Shown here piece after piece: positions 6,091 through 19,392 of a DNA stretch of 64,000 nt (positions within the stretch are counted from its first letter, which is position 1; each line of letters starts with the position of its first letter). The notes under the pieces were generated by a model. The model had not been told where the DNA came from. It saw nothing but the letters and a program-made list of their open reading frames with translations, and did not search any database. The stretch comes from Chloroflexota bacterium (GTDB lineage: Bacteria; Chloroflexota; UBA11872; VXOZ01), in the NCBI GenBank assembly GCA_963663275.1, contig OY760183.1, positions 512,001 through 576,000 of the forward strand. The letters run 5' to 3'. The position numbers were made by a program, and so were the translations under genes.

Positions 6091-7359
6091 ATGGCAGAGC
6101 TTATCGAACAACAACCCCGCGTCAATCCGCTCACCATCGCCCTGGAACAGTTCGACCGCGCGGCGGATACCTTGCACCTGGACGACGACATGCGCAAGGT
6201 GCTGCGCGTTCCCAAGCGCGAACTGACGGTGAACTTCCCGGTGCGCATGGACGACGGCCGGCTGGAGATGTTCTCCGGCTACCGGGTGCAACACAACGTG
6301 AATCGCGGCCCGGCCAAAGGCGGCATTCGCTTCGCCCCGGACGTGGACATCGAGGAAGTGCGCGCCCTGGCCATGTGGATGACGTGGAAGTGCGCCCTGG
6401 TGGGCATTCCCTACGGCGGCGCGAAAGGCGGCGTGGCCTGCAACCCCAAGCAACTCTCCCGCACCGAACTGGAAGGCCTGACCCGGCGCTTTACCACCGA
6501 AATCTACACGCTCATCGGACCGGAGGCCGACATACCCGCGCCCGACATGAATACGGATTCCCAGATCATGGCGTGGATCATGGATACCTACAGCATGCAG
6601 CGGGGCTATTCCGTGCCCGCGGTCGTGACCGGCAAACCCCTGGAAATCGGCGGCTCCGCCGGCAGAACGGAAGCCACCGGCCGCGGCGTGACCTACGTGC
6701 TGGAAGAGGTGCTGGGCCACTACGGCGAGCGGCTGGAAGGCAAGACCATCGCCATTCAGGGCTTCGGCAACGTGGGGGCGCACGCCGCCGAGTTGCTCGC
6801 CGCCCAGGGCGCGCGGGTGGTGGCCATCTCGGACATCAGCGGCGCGGTCTACAACGCCCGGGGACTGGACGTCAACGCGGCGCTGCAAATCAAGAACGAG
6901 GGCGTACTGGTGAGCGACCTGCCCGGCGGCGAACGCATCAGCAACGACGAACTGCTGGAACTGCCGGTGGATATTCTGGTGCCGGCCGCCGTCCACGGCC
7001 AGCTTACGGCGGAGAACGCGGACCACATCCGCGCCCGCTTCATCGCCGAAGCCGCCAACGGCCCCACCACGCCCGAGGCGGACGAAATCCTGCGCGAGCG
7101 GGGCATCACGGTCATCCCGGACGTGCTCTGCAACGCCGGCGGCGTGACCGTCTCCTACTTCGAGTGGGTGCAGGGCCTCCAGTCGTTCTTCTGGGAGATC
7201 GAACAAATCCGGCGGCGGCTCAAGAGCATCCTCAGCCGCGCGACGCGCGAGACCATCGCCACCGCGGAGAAGTACGACGTAGACCTGCGCATGGGCGCGT
7301 CCGCGCTCGGCGTAAGCCGCGTGGCCGAAGCGACGATGTCTCGCGGCATCTACCCCTGA
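6091..7359 (+). CDS. gdhA: Glu/Leu/Phe/Val dehydrogenase (glutamate dehydrogenase)
   Basis: ATG 6091 after AGGAG; GPAKGGIRF, GGAKGG, DIPAPD, QGFGNVG and NAGGVTVSYFEW. Confidence 0.92.
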   Translation: MAELIEQQPRVNPLTIALEQFDRAADTLHLDDDMRKVLRVPKRELTVNFPVRMDDGRLEMFSGYRVQHNVNRGPAKGGIRFAPDVDIEEVRALAMWMTWKCALVGIPYGGAKGGVACNPKQLSRTELEGLTRRFTTEIYTLIGPEADIPAPDMNTDSQIMAWIMDTYSMQRGYSVPAVVTGKPLEIGGSAGRTEATGRGVTYVLEEVLGHYGERLEGKTIAIQGFGNVGAHAAELLAAQGARVVAISDISGAVYNARGLDVNAALQIKNEGVLVSDLPGGERISNDELLELPVDILVPAAVHGQLTAENADHIRARFIAEAANGPTTPEADEILRERGITVIPDVLCNAGGVTVSYFEWVQGLQSFFWEIEQIRRRLKSILSRATRETIATAEKYDVDLRMGASALGVSRVAEATMSRGIYP

Positions 7360-10532: not shown

Positions 10533-10672
10533 GAGACCTTTGCAAAGCTCCGTCATTCCGGCGAAAGCCGGAATCCAGAGGGCTTTTGCAACGAAACATA
10601 GCATGATGTCAAGCCATTTCACCCCCATCCCAACCTTCCCCCTCGATGGGGAAGGGGTTATGCAAATGGCTC
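10533..10672. mobile_element. MITE-A (~140 bp) inserted in a BoxC-like hairpin
   Basis: Ends GAGACCTTTGCA and TGCAAATGGCTC; CCCAG duplicated at 10528-10532 and 10673-10677. Removal restores CCCTCTCCC-CCA-GGGAGAGGG. Confidence 0.75.
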
Positions 10673-10857
10673 CCCAGGGAGAGGGAATCGGAGCAGCGCC
10701 GGATTGGCGCGACCATCCGTTTGTGTGTGGTCGACCTGTTCGTGCGTGGCCGACCTGTCTGTGCGTGGCCGTCCGTTCGTGGTGAGCCTGTCGAACCATG
10801 AACGGACGGTGGCGCGGACGGAAACCAACCGCTCTGCGCACAGGTTACCTTCAGGCG

Positions 10858-10885
10858 GTAGGGGCACGACATGTCGTGCCCCTAC
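10858..10885. repeat. GTAG-type palindrome GTAGGGGCACGACATGTCGTGCCCCTAC
   Basis: Perfect palindrome; further copies at ~41676 and ~58317. Confidence 0.8.
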
Positions 10886-11715: not shown

Positions 11716-12600
11716 CTAGCGCAAATTGAGCATCCGGTAGCCCGCGGCTTCGAAGTGGCGCTGTCCCCACTGGCTGATGAGATATTTCGAAAACTGCGAG
11801 AGCGTGACCGGATACCTGGTTACCCGCGCCGTGCCGGCGTAGTAGATGATCGGACGGTGCGCCTGCTCCGGCACGGGAGCCTGAATGCGGATGCTGCTTT
11901 CAGCCTCGCCGCTGTCGTCTTCAGCGCCGCCGCTGCCGTCCTCAGCCTCGCCGCTGCTATCCACAGGCTCGCTGCCCGATGACGAATAGAGAAAGGCCGC
12001 GTCCACCTTGCCGTCAATCAGCCGCTCCCTCAGTTCGCGCTCGTCTTTGCTCTTTGACCGTTTCGACGCCAAGGCTTCCCACAGTTCCAGGCTTTCCAGG
12101 GCCTGCCGCGAGTACGCGCCCAGCGACGACTGCTCCCAATCGGCAATGCCCACGCGCCGCACGTCGTCGCGCAGGAGGTCTCGCGCGGTGTGCAGTTCCA
12201 GCGGGCTGTCGCCGGCGGTGGCAATCACCAGCCAGTTGGACGCAATGGGGCGCATGCTGCCAATCTGGATGTGCCCGGCTTCCACCAGCGGCACGGCAAA
12301 GGTGTCACCCGCCAGCAAGACGGCGTCGAAGCGCTTGCCCCGCAAGACCGACTTCATGATAGCGCCGGAGGAGAGCAGCGAGACCGAGAGCAGCACGTGG
12401 GGATTGGCCTTCTCGAAATCGGCCTTCAGCGCGGGCGTTGCGGGCGCCAGGCTGGCGTCGGCCAGCGCGGTAATGCGCTCGCGGTCGTCCGGACGCAGCA
12501 GCGTCCGCGCGCCTTCCAGCGGGCCGCACGCGGCGGCGGCCAGGCCGAGCGGGGCCGCGGCTTTCCAGGCGGTCCTCAACACTGTACGCCGGTCGCTCAT
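11716..12600 (-). CDS. ModA-like molybdate/tungstate-binding Tat lipoprotein (divergent)
   Basis: RRTVL..AAAC signal; ADASL, SSG, ASNWLVI, GAYSRQALE, VDAAFLYSS and HRPIIY. No modBC in the window. Confidence 0.75.
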   Translation of the reverse strand: MSDRRTVLRTAWKAAAPLGLAAAACGPLEGARTLLRPDDRERITALADASLAPATPALKADFEKANPHVLLSVSLLSSGAIMKSVLRGKRFDAVLLAGDTFAVPLVEAGHIQIGSMRPIASNWLVIATAGDSPLELHTARDLLRDDVRRVGIADWEQSSLGAYSRQALESLELWEALASKRSKSKDERELRERLIDGKVDAAFLYSSSGSEPVDSSGEAEDGSGGAEDDSGEAESSIRIQAPVPEQAHRPIIYYAGTARVTRYPVTLSQFSKYLISQWGQRHFEAAGYRMLNLR

Positions 12601-12677
12601 CGCGGATTCACCGTCCCTTGCCTTGCGCGCGCCGCCCGCGCAACGCGCCGCAATCCGGCCGCGCCGCCAAAGTCGCG

Positions 12678-14177
12678 TCACTCCGCCGCGAAGTCGCGCC
12701 GGACGCGCTCCCCAAAGTCGTGCGCTTCCTCAGTGTACGTGGCGAAAGGATCCGGCATCTCCAGCACCCGGCCGCGCGCGGCGATCGCCTTCCAATCCAG
12801 CACGTAGGGAATCACGTCCCAGCTATCGTTGGCGGCCACGTCCTGCCAATCGTCCACGTAGTCGTAGGCCAGGAAGAAGTAGCGGCGGTCCCACATCAGG
12901 TTTTCCAGGTTCGTGCGCAGGTCCTGCCAGGGGATGGCCGTATCCACGCCGGCCGCGGCCAGGGCCCTTAGCGCCGCGCCGCGGCCGTGGGCGCGGGTAT
13001 CGGCAGGCGGGCGGGTTTCCGCCGCGTAGACGGCCTCATCCTCCGCCCAGTAGAGGTTGCGCTGCCGCTTTGCCAGCACGTCGAAGAGGCTGATCGACGG
13101 GTCGATCTGGTGATAGGAGAGATCCAGCTTAATCAGGTCCGGGTCGGTCCAGGCCGTGCCGGCGCCGGCAAAGCGCTTGAGTTGCTCGTGCTTGGTCACC
13201 CAATCCAGGTAGCCGTCCAGCCGCGCCGGATCGCGCTCCAGTTCGTCCAACACCCAGGCCCAGTTCTCCAGCGTCCACACCGTATCCGCGTCGCGCCCGC
13301 CAAAGCGGCGTTCGGCTTCGCGCAGGTAGCGGCGCTGCACCTCGGTGGCGGGTATGTATTCGTCCGTTTCCGTGCCCACGGTCCACTTGCCGCCGGTGGT
13401 GCCGGCAATGCGGCGCAAGTCGCGCACCGGATCGGCCAGCGCGAGTTGGGGGCTCCAGCCTTGCTCCAGCAGTTGGGCGGCCAGCGCGGTGGCGCCGATC
13501 TTCAACGCGGTGGTGAACTCGGAACGATTCACGTCGCCCACGATCACGTGCAGGCGCCGGTACTCCCGTCCCGCCAGCGGCTCGTCGCGCAGATTGATGA
13601 TCGGCCGGCCGCCAAACCGCACCCGGTGGCTCACGTCCAGCGTGACGAACTGCGCCCGCTGCGAGAGCGCGAACGCGGCCGGCGTGTCCTTGCCGCGCGG
13701 CAACAGGCAGCCGGCCCCGGCGTAGATCTGGCGGGTGACGAGAAACGGCAACATGCCGTCCACCAGTTCGCGGTCGTACGGGCTCTGGCGGATGCAGTAG
13801 TTCTCGTGGTAGCCGAACGTATGGCCGAAGTAGTCGGTGTTGTTCTTGACGAAGAAGGCCTGGGACTCAAGCTCGGCGGCGCGCACGGCCTCGTTGATGA
13901 TGTGCTCGCCGGCGCGTTCGTGGGCCACCACGTCGGTCAGGGTGCGGCACTCGGCGGTGGCGTGCTCCAGGTGGCCGAGGTCGAGATACATGCGCCCGCC
14001 GTTGAAGAGAAAGCCGCCGTTCCCCGGCGCTTCCCCCCATTCCCGGGGCGGCGGGTCGATCAGGCCGTGGCGGCACCCGCGAAAGATGGCGTCCTTGACC
14101 AATACCGCCGCCCGCACGGGCTGCACGCTGCCCACGCAGCCATACTCGATCTCTGTGCCGAACAGTGCGTCATCCAT
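12678..14177 (-). CDS. pafA: Pup/UBact-protein ligase (PafA family)
   Basis: GTEIEYG, GGFLFNGGRMYLDLGHLEHATAEC, KNNTD, GYHENY, LSQRA, RPIINLRDEP, RRLHVIVGD, LDWVTK, DLSYH and TRAHGRG. Confidence 0.9.
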   Translation of the reverse strand: MDDALFGTEIEYGCVGSVQPVRAAVLVKDAIFRGCRHGLIDPPPREWGEAPGNGGFLFNGGRMYLDLGHLEHATAECRTLTDVVAHERAGEHIINEAVRAAELESQAFFVKNNTDYFGHTFGYHENYCIRQSPYDRELVDGMLPFLVTRQIYAGAGCLLPRGKDTPAAFALSQRAQFVTLDVSHRVRFGGRPIINLRDEPLAGREYRRLHVIVGDVNRSEFTTALKIGATALAAQLLEQGWSPQLALADPVRDLRRIAGTTGGKWTVGTETDEYIPATEVQRRYLREAERRFGGRDADTVWTLENWAWVLDELERDPARLDGYLDWVTKHEQLKRFAGAGTAWTDPDLIKLDLSYHQIDPSISLFDVLAKRQRNLYWAEDEAVYAAETRPPADTRAHGRGAALRALAAAGVDTAIPWQDLRTNLENLMWDRRYFFLAYDYVDDWQDVAANDSWDVIPYVLDWKAIAARGRVLEMPDPFATYTEEAHDFGERVRRDFAAE

Positions 14178-14204
14178 GCCTGCTCTACCCAAAGAAGCGC
14201 GCGG

Positions 14205-14441
14205 CTACTCGCCGCCGGGCTGCGGCGTGGGATCGGGCACTTCCCGAATGATGCGCCGGATTTCCTCGTCCAGATCGTCGGTTTCGGTCTTTTCCGGCGC
14301 TTCCGTAGGCGATTTCGTCGGCGTTTCCGTCGGCGCTTCGGTGCCCGCCCGCGCCGGACGGAACCCGCGTTCCGCCGCGGCCTCACGCGCCGCGCCGGCA
14401 GCGAATCCTCGCCACGGTCCGTTTTCAGCATACCACGTCAC
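14205..14441 (-). CDS. Small Pup-like protein modifier, 78 aa, C-terminal GGE
   Basis: AGGAGG 6 nt before GTG 14441, which overlaps the dop stop (GTGA). Low-complexity, disorder-prone sequence ending DDLDEEIRRIIREVPDPTPQPGGE; sits between dop and pafA. Confidence 0.85.
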   Translation of the reverse strand: MTWYAENGPWRGFAAGAAREAAAERGFRPARAGTEAPTETPTKSPTEAPEKTETDDLDEEIRRIIREVPDPTPQPGGE

Positions 14442-16051
14442 GTGCCGCCTCCTTGTTGTATTGCGTGGTGGAGTTCCTCGATAGTCTGGCACGCATCCAC
14501 CAACGCTTGTTGTCGAGCCACCGTCTCGCCCCAGAGTTCGGGCAGGGCCAGGGTGAAGGGCGTGCCGTTGTGTTGAAACGTGATCGAGCCCCACTCCATG
14601 GCGCTGACGTGGGGCGCGAATTTGGCCAGGCAGGCCGCCCGGACGCCGGCGCGGGTGCCCGCGGGCGCGGCGGTTTCCGCGTGCGCGATGTCCGCGTCGC
14701 TCACGATGCGCCGCATCCGGCCGGCGCGAACGAGCATGTGGTAGAGGCTCACCGCCGGATCAACCAGGTGGTAGGCCAGATCGAGCCGCAGCGCCGTCGG
14801 GTCTTCCCAATCGACGCGCGCGCCGCCGCCTTCGTCGGAGACGCCGCCTTCGTCGGAGACGCCGCCTTCGTCGGAGACGCCCATCTGGGCGAAGAGCGCC
14901 AGTTTGGCCGCCCAGTCCGCGCGGTCGCGCAGGCGCGCCGGGTTCGAGTCCAGCAGGTCGAGAACCGCGCCCCACTCGTCCAGCACCCAATCGGTTTCGG
15001 CGTCGCGGCCCCGGAAGCGCAGCACCGCCTCCCAATAGCGGCGCTGCACGTCCACCGCGCGGATGGTCGTGCCGTCGTCCAGCGCCAGCGGCCGCTTGAA
15101 CTCCAGATCGCGTGAGACTGTTTGCAGCGCCTGCACCGGGCGCCGCAGCCGCAGTCGCGGCGCCGCGCCTTGCTCTACCAGGTCGAGCATCAGGGCCGTG
15201 GCCCCCACGCGCAGGGCCGTGGCGAACTCGCTGCAATTGGCGTCGCCGATGATCACGTGCAGGCGGCGGTATTTCTCCGCGTTGGCGTGGGGCTCGTCGC
15301 GGGTATTGAATATGGGGCGCTGGGTGGTGGTATTAATGCCCACCTCGGTCTCGAAGAAGTCCGCCCGTTGGCTGAGCTGGAAACCGCCGCTGCGCCCGCC
15401 TGCCGAATCGCGCGTCTCGTACGAACGTGGCCGTTCGTGCGAACCCGGCGCTTCGTGCGCCGCCTTGCCCGCTCCCGCGTAGATCTGGCGGGTAACGAAG
15501 AAGGGAATGCACGCGCCGATCAGGTCGTGCAGCGGCACGGCGCGGCTCACCAGGTAGTTCTCGTGGCAGCCGTAACTGCGCCCGTGGTAGTCGGTGTTGT
15601 TCTTGACCAGGCGCACCCGGTCCGCTTGGCCGCCGGCGGCGTTGCGCGCCTGCTGCGCCCGCCAGGCCACGCGCTCGCCGGCCTTGTCCTGGGCAACCAG
15701 GTCGTGCAGGGAGAGACAGGCGTCCGTGCAGTATTCCGGGTGATTGTGATCATTGTAGAAGCGCGCGCCGTTGGGCAGCACGGTGTCGGCCAGGAGTTCC
15801 TGCCGGCTGAGCCGCTTGCTCTTGGCATTGTTGCCGCGCAGGTCGTGAGGATCGTGGTCCAGGCGCGCGACCCGCGTGCCGCGCAGGTCTACCCGCGGAT
15901 CCTCGGCGGTGTAGTCCCAGCCGCGAAAGACCGCGCCCGCCAGCGGCGCGCCGCGCACGAGCATGGCGGCCTCGTAGGCAAAGTCCACCGCCTGCGCGCC
16001 ATTAGCGCATATCATGCCGTACTCGGTTTCGATCCCCACGGGTCGATTCAT
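14438..16051 (-). CDS. dop: Depupylase/deamidase Dop (PafA2 family)
   Basis: GIETEYG, WDYTAEDPRVDLRG (Dop loop), NGARFYNDHNHPEY, SYGCHENY, LSQRADFF, RPIFNTRDEPHA and TRAGVR. Confidence 0.92.
   Translation of the reverse strand: MNRPVGIETEYGMICANGAQAVDFAYEAAMLVRGAPLAGAVFRGWDYTAEDPRVDLRGTRVARLDHDPHDLRGNNAKSKRLSRQELLADTVLPNGARFYNDHNHPEYCTDACLSLHDLVAQDKAGERVAWRAQQARNAAGGQADRVRLVKNNTDYHGRSYGCHENYLVSRAVPLHDLIGACIPFFVTRQIYAGAGKAAHEAPGSHERPRSYETRDSAGGRSGGFQLSQRADFFETEVGINTTTQRPIFNTRDEPHANAEKYRRLHVIIGDANCSEFATALRVGATALMLDLVEQGAAPRLRLRRPVQALQTVSRDLEFKRPLALDDGTTIRAVDVQRRYWEAVLRFRGRDAETDWVLDEWGAVLDLLDSNPARLRDRADWAAKLALFAQMGVSDEGGVSDEGGVSDEGGGARVDWEDPTALRLDLAYHLVDPAVSLYHMLVRAGRMRRIVSDADIAHAETAAPAGTRAGVRAACLAKFAPHVSAMEWGSITFQHNGTPFTLALPELWGETVARQQALVDACQTIEELHHAIQQGGGT
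14825..14878 (+). repeat. In-frame 18-bp tandem repeat x3 inside dop (GVSDEG)
   Basis: Three perfect copies of GCCGCCTTCGTCGGAGAC. Confidence 0.95.
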
Positions 16052-16052
16052 C

Positions 16053-16142
16053 GTTACCCTTCGGTACCGCGTTACCCTTCGGTACCGTGCTGCCTCTCGG
16101 TACCGTGCTGCCTCTCGGTACCGTGCTGCCTCTCGGCTTCAC
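16053..16142. repeat. 18-bp tandem repeat x5 directly upstream of dop
   Basis: GTTACCCTTCGGTACCGY x2, then GCTGCCTCTCGGTACCGT x2 plus a degenerate fifth unit. Confidence 0.9.
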
Positions 16143-16278
16143 GTTGCCTGCGGTGTCGCGCTACTTGCGGTATGGTGTTGCCCTGCCCTGCCGCGTCACC
16201 TGCGACAACGCGCTGCCTTACGGCGCTGTGTTACGTTGCGGCGCCGCTGTCGTTTCCGCCTCCGCCATTCCATTTCCT

Positions 16279-16287
16279 AGTATAGCA
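16279..16287 (-). promoter_or_regulatory. Extended -10 promoter (TGcTATACT) for the dop operon
   Basis: Matches TGnTAnnnT on the minus strand, about 230 nt upstream of dop. Confidence 0.5.
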
Positions 16288-16387
16288 AGCCGCGAAACGT
16301 GTAACCCATCAGCCCGAACACGTGCATCGATTTCCCAGCCATGTAGAATAGAAGCAGCAAGAAACGCTCCATGCAGCCAGGAGCCAC

Positions 16388-16505
16388 CGCCAAGCGCCCA
16401 AATAGGGGAGGCCAGCACCCAAAGAGGATAGGCAAGCGCCCCAAGAGGACAGGCAAGCGCCCCAAGAAGGCAGGCAAGCGCCCAAAGTTCGGGACAAGCG
16501 CCCAG
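16388..16505. repeat. 21-bp tandem repeat (~5.5 units)
   Basis: GGCAAGCGCCCCAAGAGGAYA-like units. Confidence 0.85.
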
Positions 16506-16624
16506 CGTGGAGGACACCCTTGGTTCCCTCTATCTGGGTGGGCCGCTTGCACATCCAGTCCCCTCTCCCCGAGGGAGAGGGTTAGGGTGAGGGTGAATCC
16601 GGGCAGCACAGAAAGCTCAACCAC

Positions 16625-18906: not shown

Positions 18907-19392
18907 GAGACCTTTGCGTAACCTTGGGCAGCGCTCCTTCTGCTCCCTCTCCCTGGGCTGACAGGGGTAGGCACGTGTCATTCCGAGCGGAGCGAGGAAT
19001 CTAGAAGAGAAATTCTTGCAGGGAAAGCCTTAGATTCCTCTCTCCGCTGCGCTCCGCTCGGAATGACACGTGAAGTCGGATGTAGAATGCCTACCCCTGT
19101 CAGTTCTCCCTGGGAGACCTTGCATAACTCTGTCATTCCGGTGAAAACCGGAATCCAGAGCGCTTTTACAAAAAAAGCGCATGGTTTCAAGCCATTTCAC
19201 CCCCCATCCCAACCTTCCCCCCAATGGGGAAGGGGTTACGCAAAGGTCTCCCTGGGGTGAGGGGAATCCTCGTCGGTTCCGCCTCATTTTGCAAGGCTTG
19301 GGTATGAGCCGCCGCATAATCTCCCCTCACCCTAAACCTCTCCCCGGTGAGAGGGAACTTTTCGCCTCTCAGCGAGGTTACGCAAAGGTCTT
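18907..19392. mobile_element. Nested MITE cluster (outer GAGACC-ended element containing MITE-B 18955-19106 and MITE-A 19114-19250)
   Basis: Outer ends GAGACCTTTGCGTAACC and GGTTACGCAAAGGTCTT, flanks CCGAG/CTGAG. MITE-B duplication TCCCT; MITE-A duplication CCTGG. Confidence 0.8.

Follow-up and report, generated by a model that had tools for sequence, protein, structure and literature searches.

What is understood of pupylation concerns almost wholly its role in Actinobacteria, where it leads proteins to the Mpa-proteasome. There, the tag Pup (PF05639, TIGR03687) ends in GG[EQ] and is served by paralogous enzymes with conserved catalytic motifs, the ligase PafA (TIGR03686) and the deamidase/depupylase Dop (TIGR03688). 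The UBact system (PF20513, NF033388) of Armatimonadota, Nitrospirota and others likewise uses a small disordered tag ending in G[EQ], encoded right after dop in an mpa-dop-UBact-prcB-prcA-pafA operon. Here, we analyzed a 64,000-nt stretch of the genome of a Chloroflexota bacterium (contig OY760183.1, positions 512,001 to 576,000 of the forward strand; hereafter the window), in which a dop-like gene, a gene for a 78-residue protein ending in PQPGGE (the tag) and a pafA-like gene follow one another directly. This cassette shares with the actinobacterial system the GG[EQ] end of the tag and the paralogous pair of enzymes with their catalytic motifs, and with the UBact system the place of the tag gene after dop and the small disordered build of its product. 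It differs from the UBact operon, however, in that mpa, prcB and prcA are all missing and pafA directly follows the tag. We propose that the cassette is a self-contained, reversible protein-tagging system of the Pup/UBact kind, with conjugation predicted, a reading that we consider likely. What is new is the tag family and a class-wide cassette without Mpa or proteasome, the enzymes and the presumed chemistry being those of Pup and UBact.

Pup-type genes without a proteasome have precedents. The broad definition of Pup by Iyer et al. 2008, as given in the accessible part of PMC2588565, is a protein of 50-90 amino acids (aa) that adjoins a PafA homologue and has a C-terminal G[EQ]. The tag described here has these properties, being 78 aa long (74 in congeners), encoded beside a PafA homologue and G[EQ]-ended. 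The same part of that paper reports proteasome-unlinked cases in Plesiocystis and Rhodopirellula, which keep tag, ligase and depupylase without 20S subunits, as here, and whose ligases carry four transmembrane inserts and a linked membrane-protein gene. No Plesiocystis-type insert was seen when our PafA-like protein was aligned to solved PafA, and no membrane-protein gene was present among the neighbour clusters scanned. Corynebacterium glutamicum likewise has tag, ligase and depupylase without the 20S genes prcBA, but ARC is kept there and, according to the accessible text of PMC8223512, unfolds pupylated ferritin, whereas neither ARC nor Mpa was found here. For such proteasome-less systems, a degradation-independent role has been proposed (PMC8223512, PMC2588565, both in the parts available). 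Titles and abstract beginnings gave no description of a Pup-type system in Chloroflexota, although supplementary alignments (PMC2588565, PMC7947786) might hold such sequences; the available part of a 2020 survey (PMC7947786) names Actinobacteria, Nitrospirae and sporadic other phyla, and not Chloroflexi. Experimental work on UBact did not appear in the literature listings either.

A conserved tag gene between dop and pafA

The ORF (open reading frame) list of the window places dop, tag and pafA in head-to-tail order on the minus strand, with the following features:

14438-16051, minus strand: dop-like gene, 537 aa, predicted deamidase/depupylase; contains LPNGARFYNDHNHPEY
14205-14441, minus strand: tag gene, 78 aa, ending in ...RIIREVPDPTPQPGGE (C-terminus PQPGGE); stop codon at 14205-14207
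12678-14192, minus strand: pafA-like gene, 504 aa from the listed start, predicted tag ligase; contains REWGEAPGNGGFLFNGGR
14448-14454, minus strand: Shine-Dalgarno-like AAGGAGG of the tag gene, inside the dop reading frame at its end, six bases before GTG 14441
14295-14339, minus strand: 12-nt tandem repeat, 3.8 copies, encoding the TE/PT-rich linker of the tag

The tag reading frame is open over 14205-14594 and its 78-aa form begins at GTG 14441. This GTG (14441-14439) overlaps the TGA of dop (14440-14438), the two being read as GTGA. With this overlap and the AAGGAGG motif, the locus has the layout claimed in an earlier note made from the letters of the window, a translationally coupled operon of dop, a 78-aa GGE ORF and pafA, and the TExP-type repeats which that note had described in the tag correspond to the 12-nt period listed above. 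The gap between tag and pafA measures 12-27 nt, depending on the pafA start, and nothing lies between the two genes. The listed pafA start is TTG 14192; ATG 14177 (MDDALFGTEIEYG) is a better fit to the N-termini of relatives, and the true start is probably this ATG, 15 nt further in. Many congeners (L038, at 6171-6693, and other same-genus loci, L039-L050) carry an insert of 190-660 nt between the tag gene and pafA, which holds no conserved ORF and resembles a repeat element.

The small ORF is a genuine gene under constraint. A search of protein sequences returned 23 homologues, all 23 without a name or Pfam domain; no Pfam or NCBIfam family matches the window tag, and a protein atlas gave no usable match. 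In an alignment of 24 sequences, the first five and the last ~45 residues are near-invariant, the stretch between them varies freely, and the C-terminus is GGQ in two sequences and GGE in the rest. Most congeners have a tag of 74 aa, the window tag carrying one extra 4-aa repeat unit relative to 22 of the 23 homologues. The N-terminal part of all tags is rich in E, P and T and 30-45 residues long, with its length kept and its sequence variable. We then scanned 185,579 species, each represented by a single genome, for the pattern RI[IV]RE[IV]PDP and obtained 72 loci, all under a Chloroflexota or Chloroflexi title (a few labelled as Thermoflexus metagenome-assembled genomes). In every one of them the tag is flanked by Dop upstream and PafA downstream, the 'Dop' match at two loci whose contigs start near the tag (L053, L080) being a cross-match to the pafA region. 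Moreover, the TPQPGG[EQ] tail, which lies outside the search pattern, is kept in 72/72 loci (44 end in E, 28 in Q), across families between which PafA and Dop identity drops to ~50%. Homologous loci lacking a conserved G-G-E/Q ORF, which the earlier note had allowed for, are thus not what the scan returned.

A second frame at the same place, a basic 123-aa ORF that starts at ATG 14431 and runs into pafA, was considered and rejected: its product matches no family, and conservation across all 72 loci follows the GGE frame. In one database homologue (P0023), an N-terminus from another frame, like that of ATG 14431, is joined to the conserved C-terminus; this chimera probably arose through a frameshift or faulty assembly.

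Alternation of Glu and Gln at the C-terminus is a signature of tags deamidated by Dop. The earlier note had argued from the terminal Glu of the window tag that Dop would act only as a deconjugase. This may hold for the host genome, but it fails as a family property because the 28 of 72 species that encode GGQ would need deamidation. A quite different explanation would do without conjugation to proteins: the product of the small ORF would serve two GCS2-like enzymes as a peptide substrate, to be modified for instance, or would regulate them, or else the cassette would be a decaying relic. The carboxylate-amine ligase superfamily, to which the PafA family belongs, does include small-molecule members (PMC2588565), and no conjugates have been seen so far. 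A relic is nevertheless excluded by the intact frames and by a tail that is invariant in 72/72 species, and the C-terminal E/Q alternation, the loop-bearing Dop and the docking predicted for the helix and tail (see below) all fit protein tagging rather than a peptide substrate. We therefore regard this explanation as very improbable.

The tag compared with Pup and UBact

The earlier note had also held that the tag matches neither known family, and hidden Markov model (HMM) searches gave the same picture. The window tag has no Pup match (PF05639/TIGR03687) at E <= 1, and the tags of three other families have none at E <= 10. With the UBact models (PF20513 / NF033388), no match was obtained at E <= 10 for the tags of four families. 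When a profile of 13 diverse tags was run against PDB sequences, no Pup chain was found at E <= 10, the comparison with Pup being one by Pfam HMM and PDB sequences only. A UBact profile likewise finds no Pup chain in PDB, so that, measured in this way, the tag stands as far from Pup and UBact as these two do from one another. The UBact hallmark RRYRQR[ST]G[EQ], present in 27 of 28 aligned UBacts, is replaced in the Chloroflexota tags by PDPTPQPGG[EQ] (72/72). In contrast to actinobacterial Pup, the tag has one evident helix before an 11-residue Pro-rich tail, and there is no Mpa/ARC. On these comparisons the tag forms a sequence family of its own, which our scans detected in a single uncultured class of Chloroflexota and nowhere else.

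Could the tag instead be a fast-evolved orthologue of UBact (or Pup), missed by the HMMs in a lineage with secondary proteasome loss like Corynebacterium? Its place after dop and its terminal G[EQ] are those of UBact, the Dops of the GGE-tag loci join the UBact-linked Dops (see below), and one member of the class (G017) keeps a full UBact-proteasome operon. Proteasome-less pupylation is also known, in C. glutamicum (PMC8223512, accessible part). In addition, one aligned stretch, ETDDLDEEIRRI in the tag and DTKELLRRMRRV in UBact, lies at equal distance from the C-terminus in both, which we take as a hint and not as evidence: the alignment of the tag to 28 UBacts has an hhalign probability of 0.86% (E 0.064, 12 columns). 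This low probability and the silence of both HMM sets argue against orthology, as does the replacement of the UBact hallmark by an equally invariant motif. The UBact profile, moreover, misses Pup as well, and Mpa is gone too, whereas Corynebacterium keeps ARC (same source). Altogether, we consider it rather unlikely that the tag is an ordinary, fast-evolved member of one of these families. The earlier note had proposed a third modifier class, which stands at the level of sequence families; the presumed chemistry, the gene order and the enzymes are, however, of the Pup/UBact type, and the broad Pup definition of 2008, as far as the accessible part of PMC2588565 gives it, covers this tag. Whether this amounts to a 'third class' depends on where one sets the borders between families.

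Enzymes and the predicted tag-ligase complex

Both enzymes match the Pfam family Pup_ligase, the 537-aa protein at 3.6e-145 and the 504-aa protein at 1.1e-107. The 537-aa protein scores 413.5 bits with the Dop model TIGR03688 (cut-off 492.3) and 328.9 with the PafA model. Its best solved relative is Dop 5lrt (325.9 bits, with residues 1-533 aligned and the loop region specific to Dop covered; 208.6 for PafA 4b0t), and Asp101 of its YNDH motif is aligned with the Asp of the Dop motif YVDH. The 504-aa protein scores 288.5 bits with the PafA model TIGR03686 (cut-off 551.3) vs 260 with the Dop model, and 216.7 bits with solved PafA 4b0t vs 205.6 with Dop. It has the NGG..YLD motif at PafA spacing (query residue 59; 52 in PafA, 84 in Dop), lacks the Dop loop and keeps the catalytic Asp71 of YLD. 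By these matches, the 504-aa protein is the predicted ligase and the 537-aa protein the predicted deamidase/depupylase. The dop gene also contains a perfect in-frame 18-nt tandem repeat (14824-14881, 3.2 copies) that encodes GVSDEG three times in the C-terminal region of Dop; it is absent from the Dop of the congener L038 and looks like a strain-specific expansion.

A Dop search returned 4,859 relatives among 1.84 billion representatives, two of them at 54-59% identity and the others at <=46%; the nearest named relatives are from Armatimonadota and Latescibacterota. In a metagenome scan with the Dop alignment, 80 loci were recovered: two of the GGE/GGQ type (dop-tag-pafA), 31 with UBact, most of these with mpa upstream and prcB-prcA-pafA downstream, and 47 in which no G[EQ] ORF ends 60-520 nt after dop, several of these loci being cut by contig ends. 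A large subclade of mpa-dop loci (L139-L202) has neither a G[EQ] ORF within 520 nt after dop nor prcB downstream, which suggests that the tag of these loci, if any, is elsewhere or of another kind.

To place the enzymes, we built a tree with IQ-TREE (short search, with support from the Shimodaira-Hasegawa-like approximate likelihood ratio test, SH-aLRT) from 70 hand-chosen rows: 11 GGE-type Dops, 18 UBact-linked Dops, 10 'no tag' Dops taken from L139-L202, 25 representatives and 6 presumed PafA, two of which (P0177, P0216) fell outside the PafA group and were unstable between trees. The Dops of the GGE-tag loci form one clade of 11 rows (SH-aLRT 100, stem length 0.73). This clade lies inside a 49-row clade (SH-aLRT 94), in a polytomy with two UBact-linked groups, and the actinobacterial Dops (Acidimicrobiia and Micrococcales labels) form a separate 8-row clade (SH-aLRT 98). 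Judged by this tree, the Dop-like protein belongs with the UBact-linked Dops and apart from actinobacterial Dop, as the earlier note had suggested; besides its scores below the equivalog cut-offs, shared with the ligase, this position outside the actinobacterial clade sets it apart from the actinobacterial system. The parallel suggestion for PafA is weaker. The PafA-like protein groups with the PafA of the UBact operon of G017 and one Gemmatimonadota protein (SH-aLRT 100), and the named neighbours on the PafA side are Gemmatimonadota, Moduliflexus, Arcanobacterium and Planctomycetota; a contrast with actinobacterial PafA is unsupported in this tree, where PafA sampling is thin (the representative search was seeded with Dop) and actinobacterial PafA is not securely placed. 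Most likely, the cassette descends from, or beside, an operon of the UBact type (mpa-dop-UBact-prcB-prcA-pafA), from which mpa and prcBA would have been lost and in which the tag would have been remodelled.

We further modelled PafA in complex with the 60 C-terminal residues of the tag, using alignments of our own making (28 rows for PafA, 13 for the tag). The complex score was 0.75 (runs 0.76, 0.75 and 0.73), against 0.17 for the highest of the three controls. Among solved complexes, 58 of 80 reach the 0.75 mark, as do 2 of 110 mismatched pairs. At least 71% of the contacts are common to the runs, and the partner pLDDT (predicted local distance difference test score) is at least 53. In the numbering of the last 60 residues, predicted tag contacts are E35, L39, E42, I43, I46, I47 and 49-59. 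In the model, a hydrophobic helix face (L39, I43, I46, I47) meets PafA 337-376, and tail residues 49-59 run along PafA 16-26, 71-74, 113 and 120-127, by the GTEIEYG and YLD motifs. The sites that the tail would touch adjoin nucleotide-/metal-binding and catalytic motifs of PafA. Actinobacterial Pup occupies the groove of its ligase in the same manner as predicted here, by a helix and an extended tail.

In the mechanism that we propose, the ligase would be bound via the short amphipathic helix of the tag (DDLDEEIRRIIRE), while the invariant Pro-rich VPDPTPQPGGE tail would lie along the groove toward the active site. Using ATP, the PafA-like ligase would join the side-chain carboxylate of the C-terminal Glu to target lysines, and the Dop-like enzyme would take the tag off again; in relatives with a Gln-ending tag, Dop would first deamidate Gln to Glu. 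We infer this conjugation chemistry from the homology of the enzymes, their kept catalytic motifs, the E/Q alternation and the predicted complex.

Several points weigh against a tagging system of the Pup/UBact kind. Conjugate, transcript and protein of the cassette are predicted from genes alone. Both enzymes score below the NCBI equivalog cut-offs, and the PafA-like protein favours PafA over Dop narrowly. The tag has no significant similarity to UBact, the hhalign result included, or to PDB Pup chains, so that its homology is not demonstrated. In the tree, the polytomy leaves the GGE clade either sister to or nested in the UBact-linked Dops. As for the predicted complex, the terminal Glu (residue 60) is outside the confidently placed residues, and the score may partly be fold memory because the PafA-Pup complex has been solved (4bjr).

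A class-wide cassette without Mpa or proteasome

The host genome, a single contig of 3.53 Mb, is 99.57% complete and has no Pup_ligase genes besides dop and pafA of the cassette. No ATPase gene lies upstream of dop in the window. When the whole genome was searched for Mpa, the best pup_AAA match was FtsH (147 bits; 816.5 on the FtsH model), and no 20S subunit anywhere in the genome exceeded the cut-off. The absence of mpa and prcBA that the earlier note had reported for the locus therefore extends to the complete genome. A six-frame genome search with the Pup HMM gave 0 matches at E <= 10, with the C. glutamicum control above cut-off, and the best genome-wide match of the UBact HMM, at 13.8 bits, was a chance match within a 628-aa frame. 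The genome also encodes an orphan 265-aa Proteasome-family protein (G000:C1:900963-901757; L216 4961-5758) that scores 48 bits with Pfam and 37 bits with an archaeal beta model. We considered it as the missing protease and rejected it, as it is present in only 2 of 41 relatives, has no HslV match (NCBIfam) and stands among unrelated neighbours.

Across 41 genomes of the class, host included, the dop and pafA pair is present in 40, and a 20S-beta match at E <= 0.001 is absent in 39. The sole genome with Mpa (453 bits) and PrcB (138 bits) is G017, which carries a full minus-strand mpa-dop-UBact-prcB-prcA-pafA operon, with a small ORF that is UBact by both models (79.9 bits PF20513, 78.1 bits NF033388). 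This genome (L132-L135) holds five Pup_ligase-family genes, those of the full operon and three more paralogues elsewhere. Among 301 Chloroflexota genomes sampled, Pup_ligase was found in 31 of 33 from the class vs 0 of 268 from other classes. The cassette is thus universal in one uncultured class of Chloroflexota, without Mpa or proteasome, one class member (G017) excepted. The genes, their order and conservation, the absence of Mpa and 20S and the membership of Dop in its clade are established here.

Flanking ORFs of the 72 loci were clustered all against all, and no neighbour was common to all loci, which argues that the three genes form a self-contained unit. The commonest neighbour is a metabolic gene, OCD/mu-crystallin (27/72 loci); a FabA-like gene, a CN hydrolase and two unnamed families are rarer. 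Neighbours in the window were also considered as conserved partner genes and discarded, UvrC, PyrF and SBP being found in 0/72 loci and NIF3 and the symporter in 1/72.

With Mpa and 20S both missing, the tag could act as a degradation or unfolding signal for a general AAA+ machine (FtsH, ClpXP/ClpCP or Lon) that replaces them. Its long E/P/T-rich N-terminal part, 30-45 residues of kept length, would suit an unstructured initiation site, and FtsH is encoded in the genome. On the other hand, none of the 72 loci links an AAA+ or protease gene to the cassette, no receptor motif is known and binding is hypothetical; we see such a signal as a real possibility, at somewhat less than even chances. In the most far-reaching interpretation, PQPGG[E/Q] tags would add a third family to the Pup-type protein modifiers of bacteria, one that works without a dedicated unfoldase or proteasome as a reversible, purely regulatory lysine mark and has done so class-wide since the class arose. 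We put this forward tentatively and hold it, taken as a whole, to be doubtful. Considered by itself, a purely regulatory role is about equally possible as engagement by a general AAA+ machine, with a slight preference on our side for the latter, to which the long disordered N-terminal part would deliver the tagged protein.

If the cassette is the self-contained tagging system that we propose, it matters in several respects. A whole class, with many single-contig genomes among its members, keeps writer, eraser and a strongly constrained tag without Mpa and 20S, and it is therefore a natural case for what Pup-type tagging does alone. The predicted complex would show how far a tag can change and yet fit the ligase groove. 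The genes go unnamed because the tag family is absent from Pfam and NCBIfam. Pupylated peptides are searched for by their short GGE remnant. Lys and Arg are absent from the last 12 residues of the tag, so tryptic digestion would leave the modified lysine with a branch of 12 residues, and GGE-remnant searches would miss conjugates of this tag. As a short orthogonal pair, tag and ligase could also be put to use in proximity labelling, as Pup is in PUP-IT (PMC11747095).

The surroundings of the cassette in the window hold further features. Upstream of dop, 16052-16624 is a non-coding spacer of ~570 nt with tandem repeats (16055-16136 and 16391-16487; 18/36-nt and 21-nt periods, ~4.6 copies each), which might influence the promoter region. 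Beyond 16624 the genes are divergently oriented, with weak NIF3 matches only. Downstream of pafA, an SBP_bac_11 gene (1.6e-32) occupies 11716-12681, its listed GTG start overlapping the pafA stop by 4 nt; as its absence from the related loci would suggest, this overlap is probably incidental, or the true SBP start lies further in. Finally, short ORF fragments, ...IPAFAGMTELCKG... and ...IPVFTGMTELCK..., recur on either side of the locus (~10540-10870 and ~18978-19320), suggesting a dispersed repeat element.

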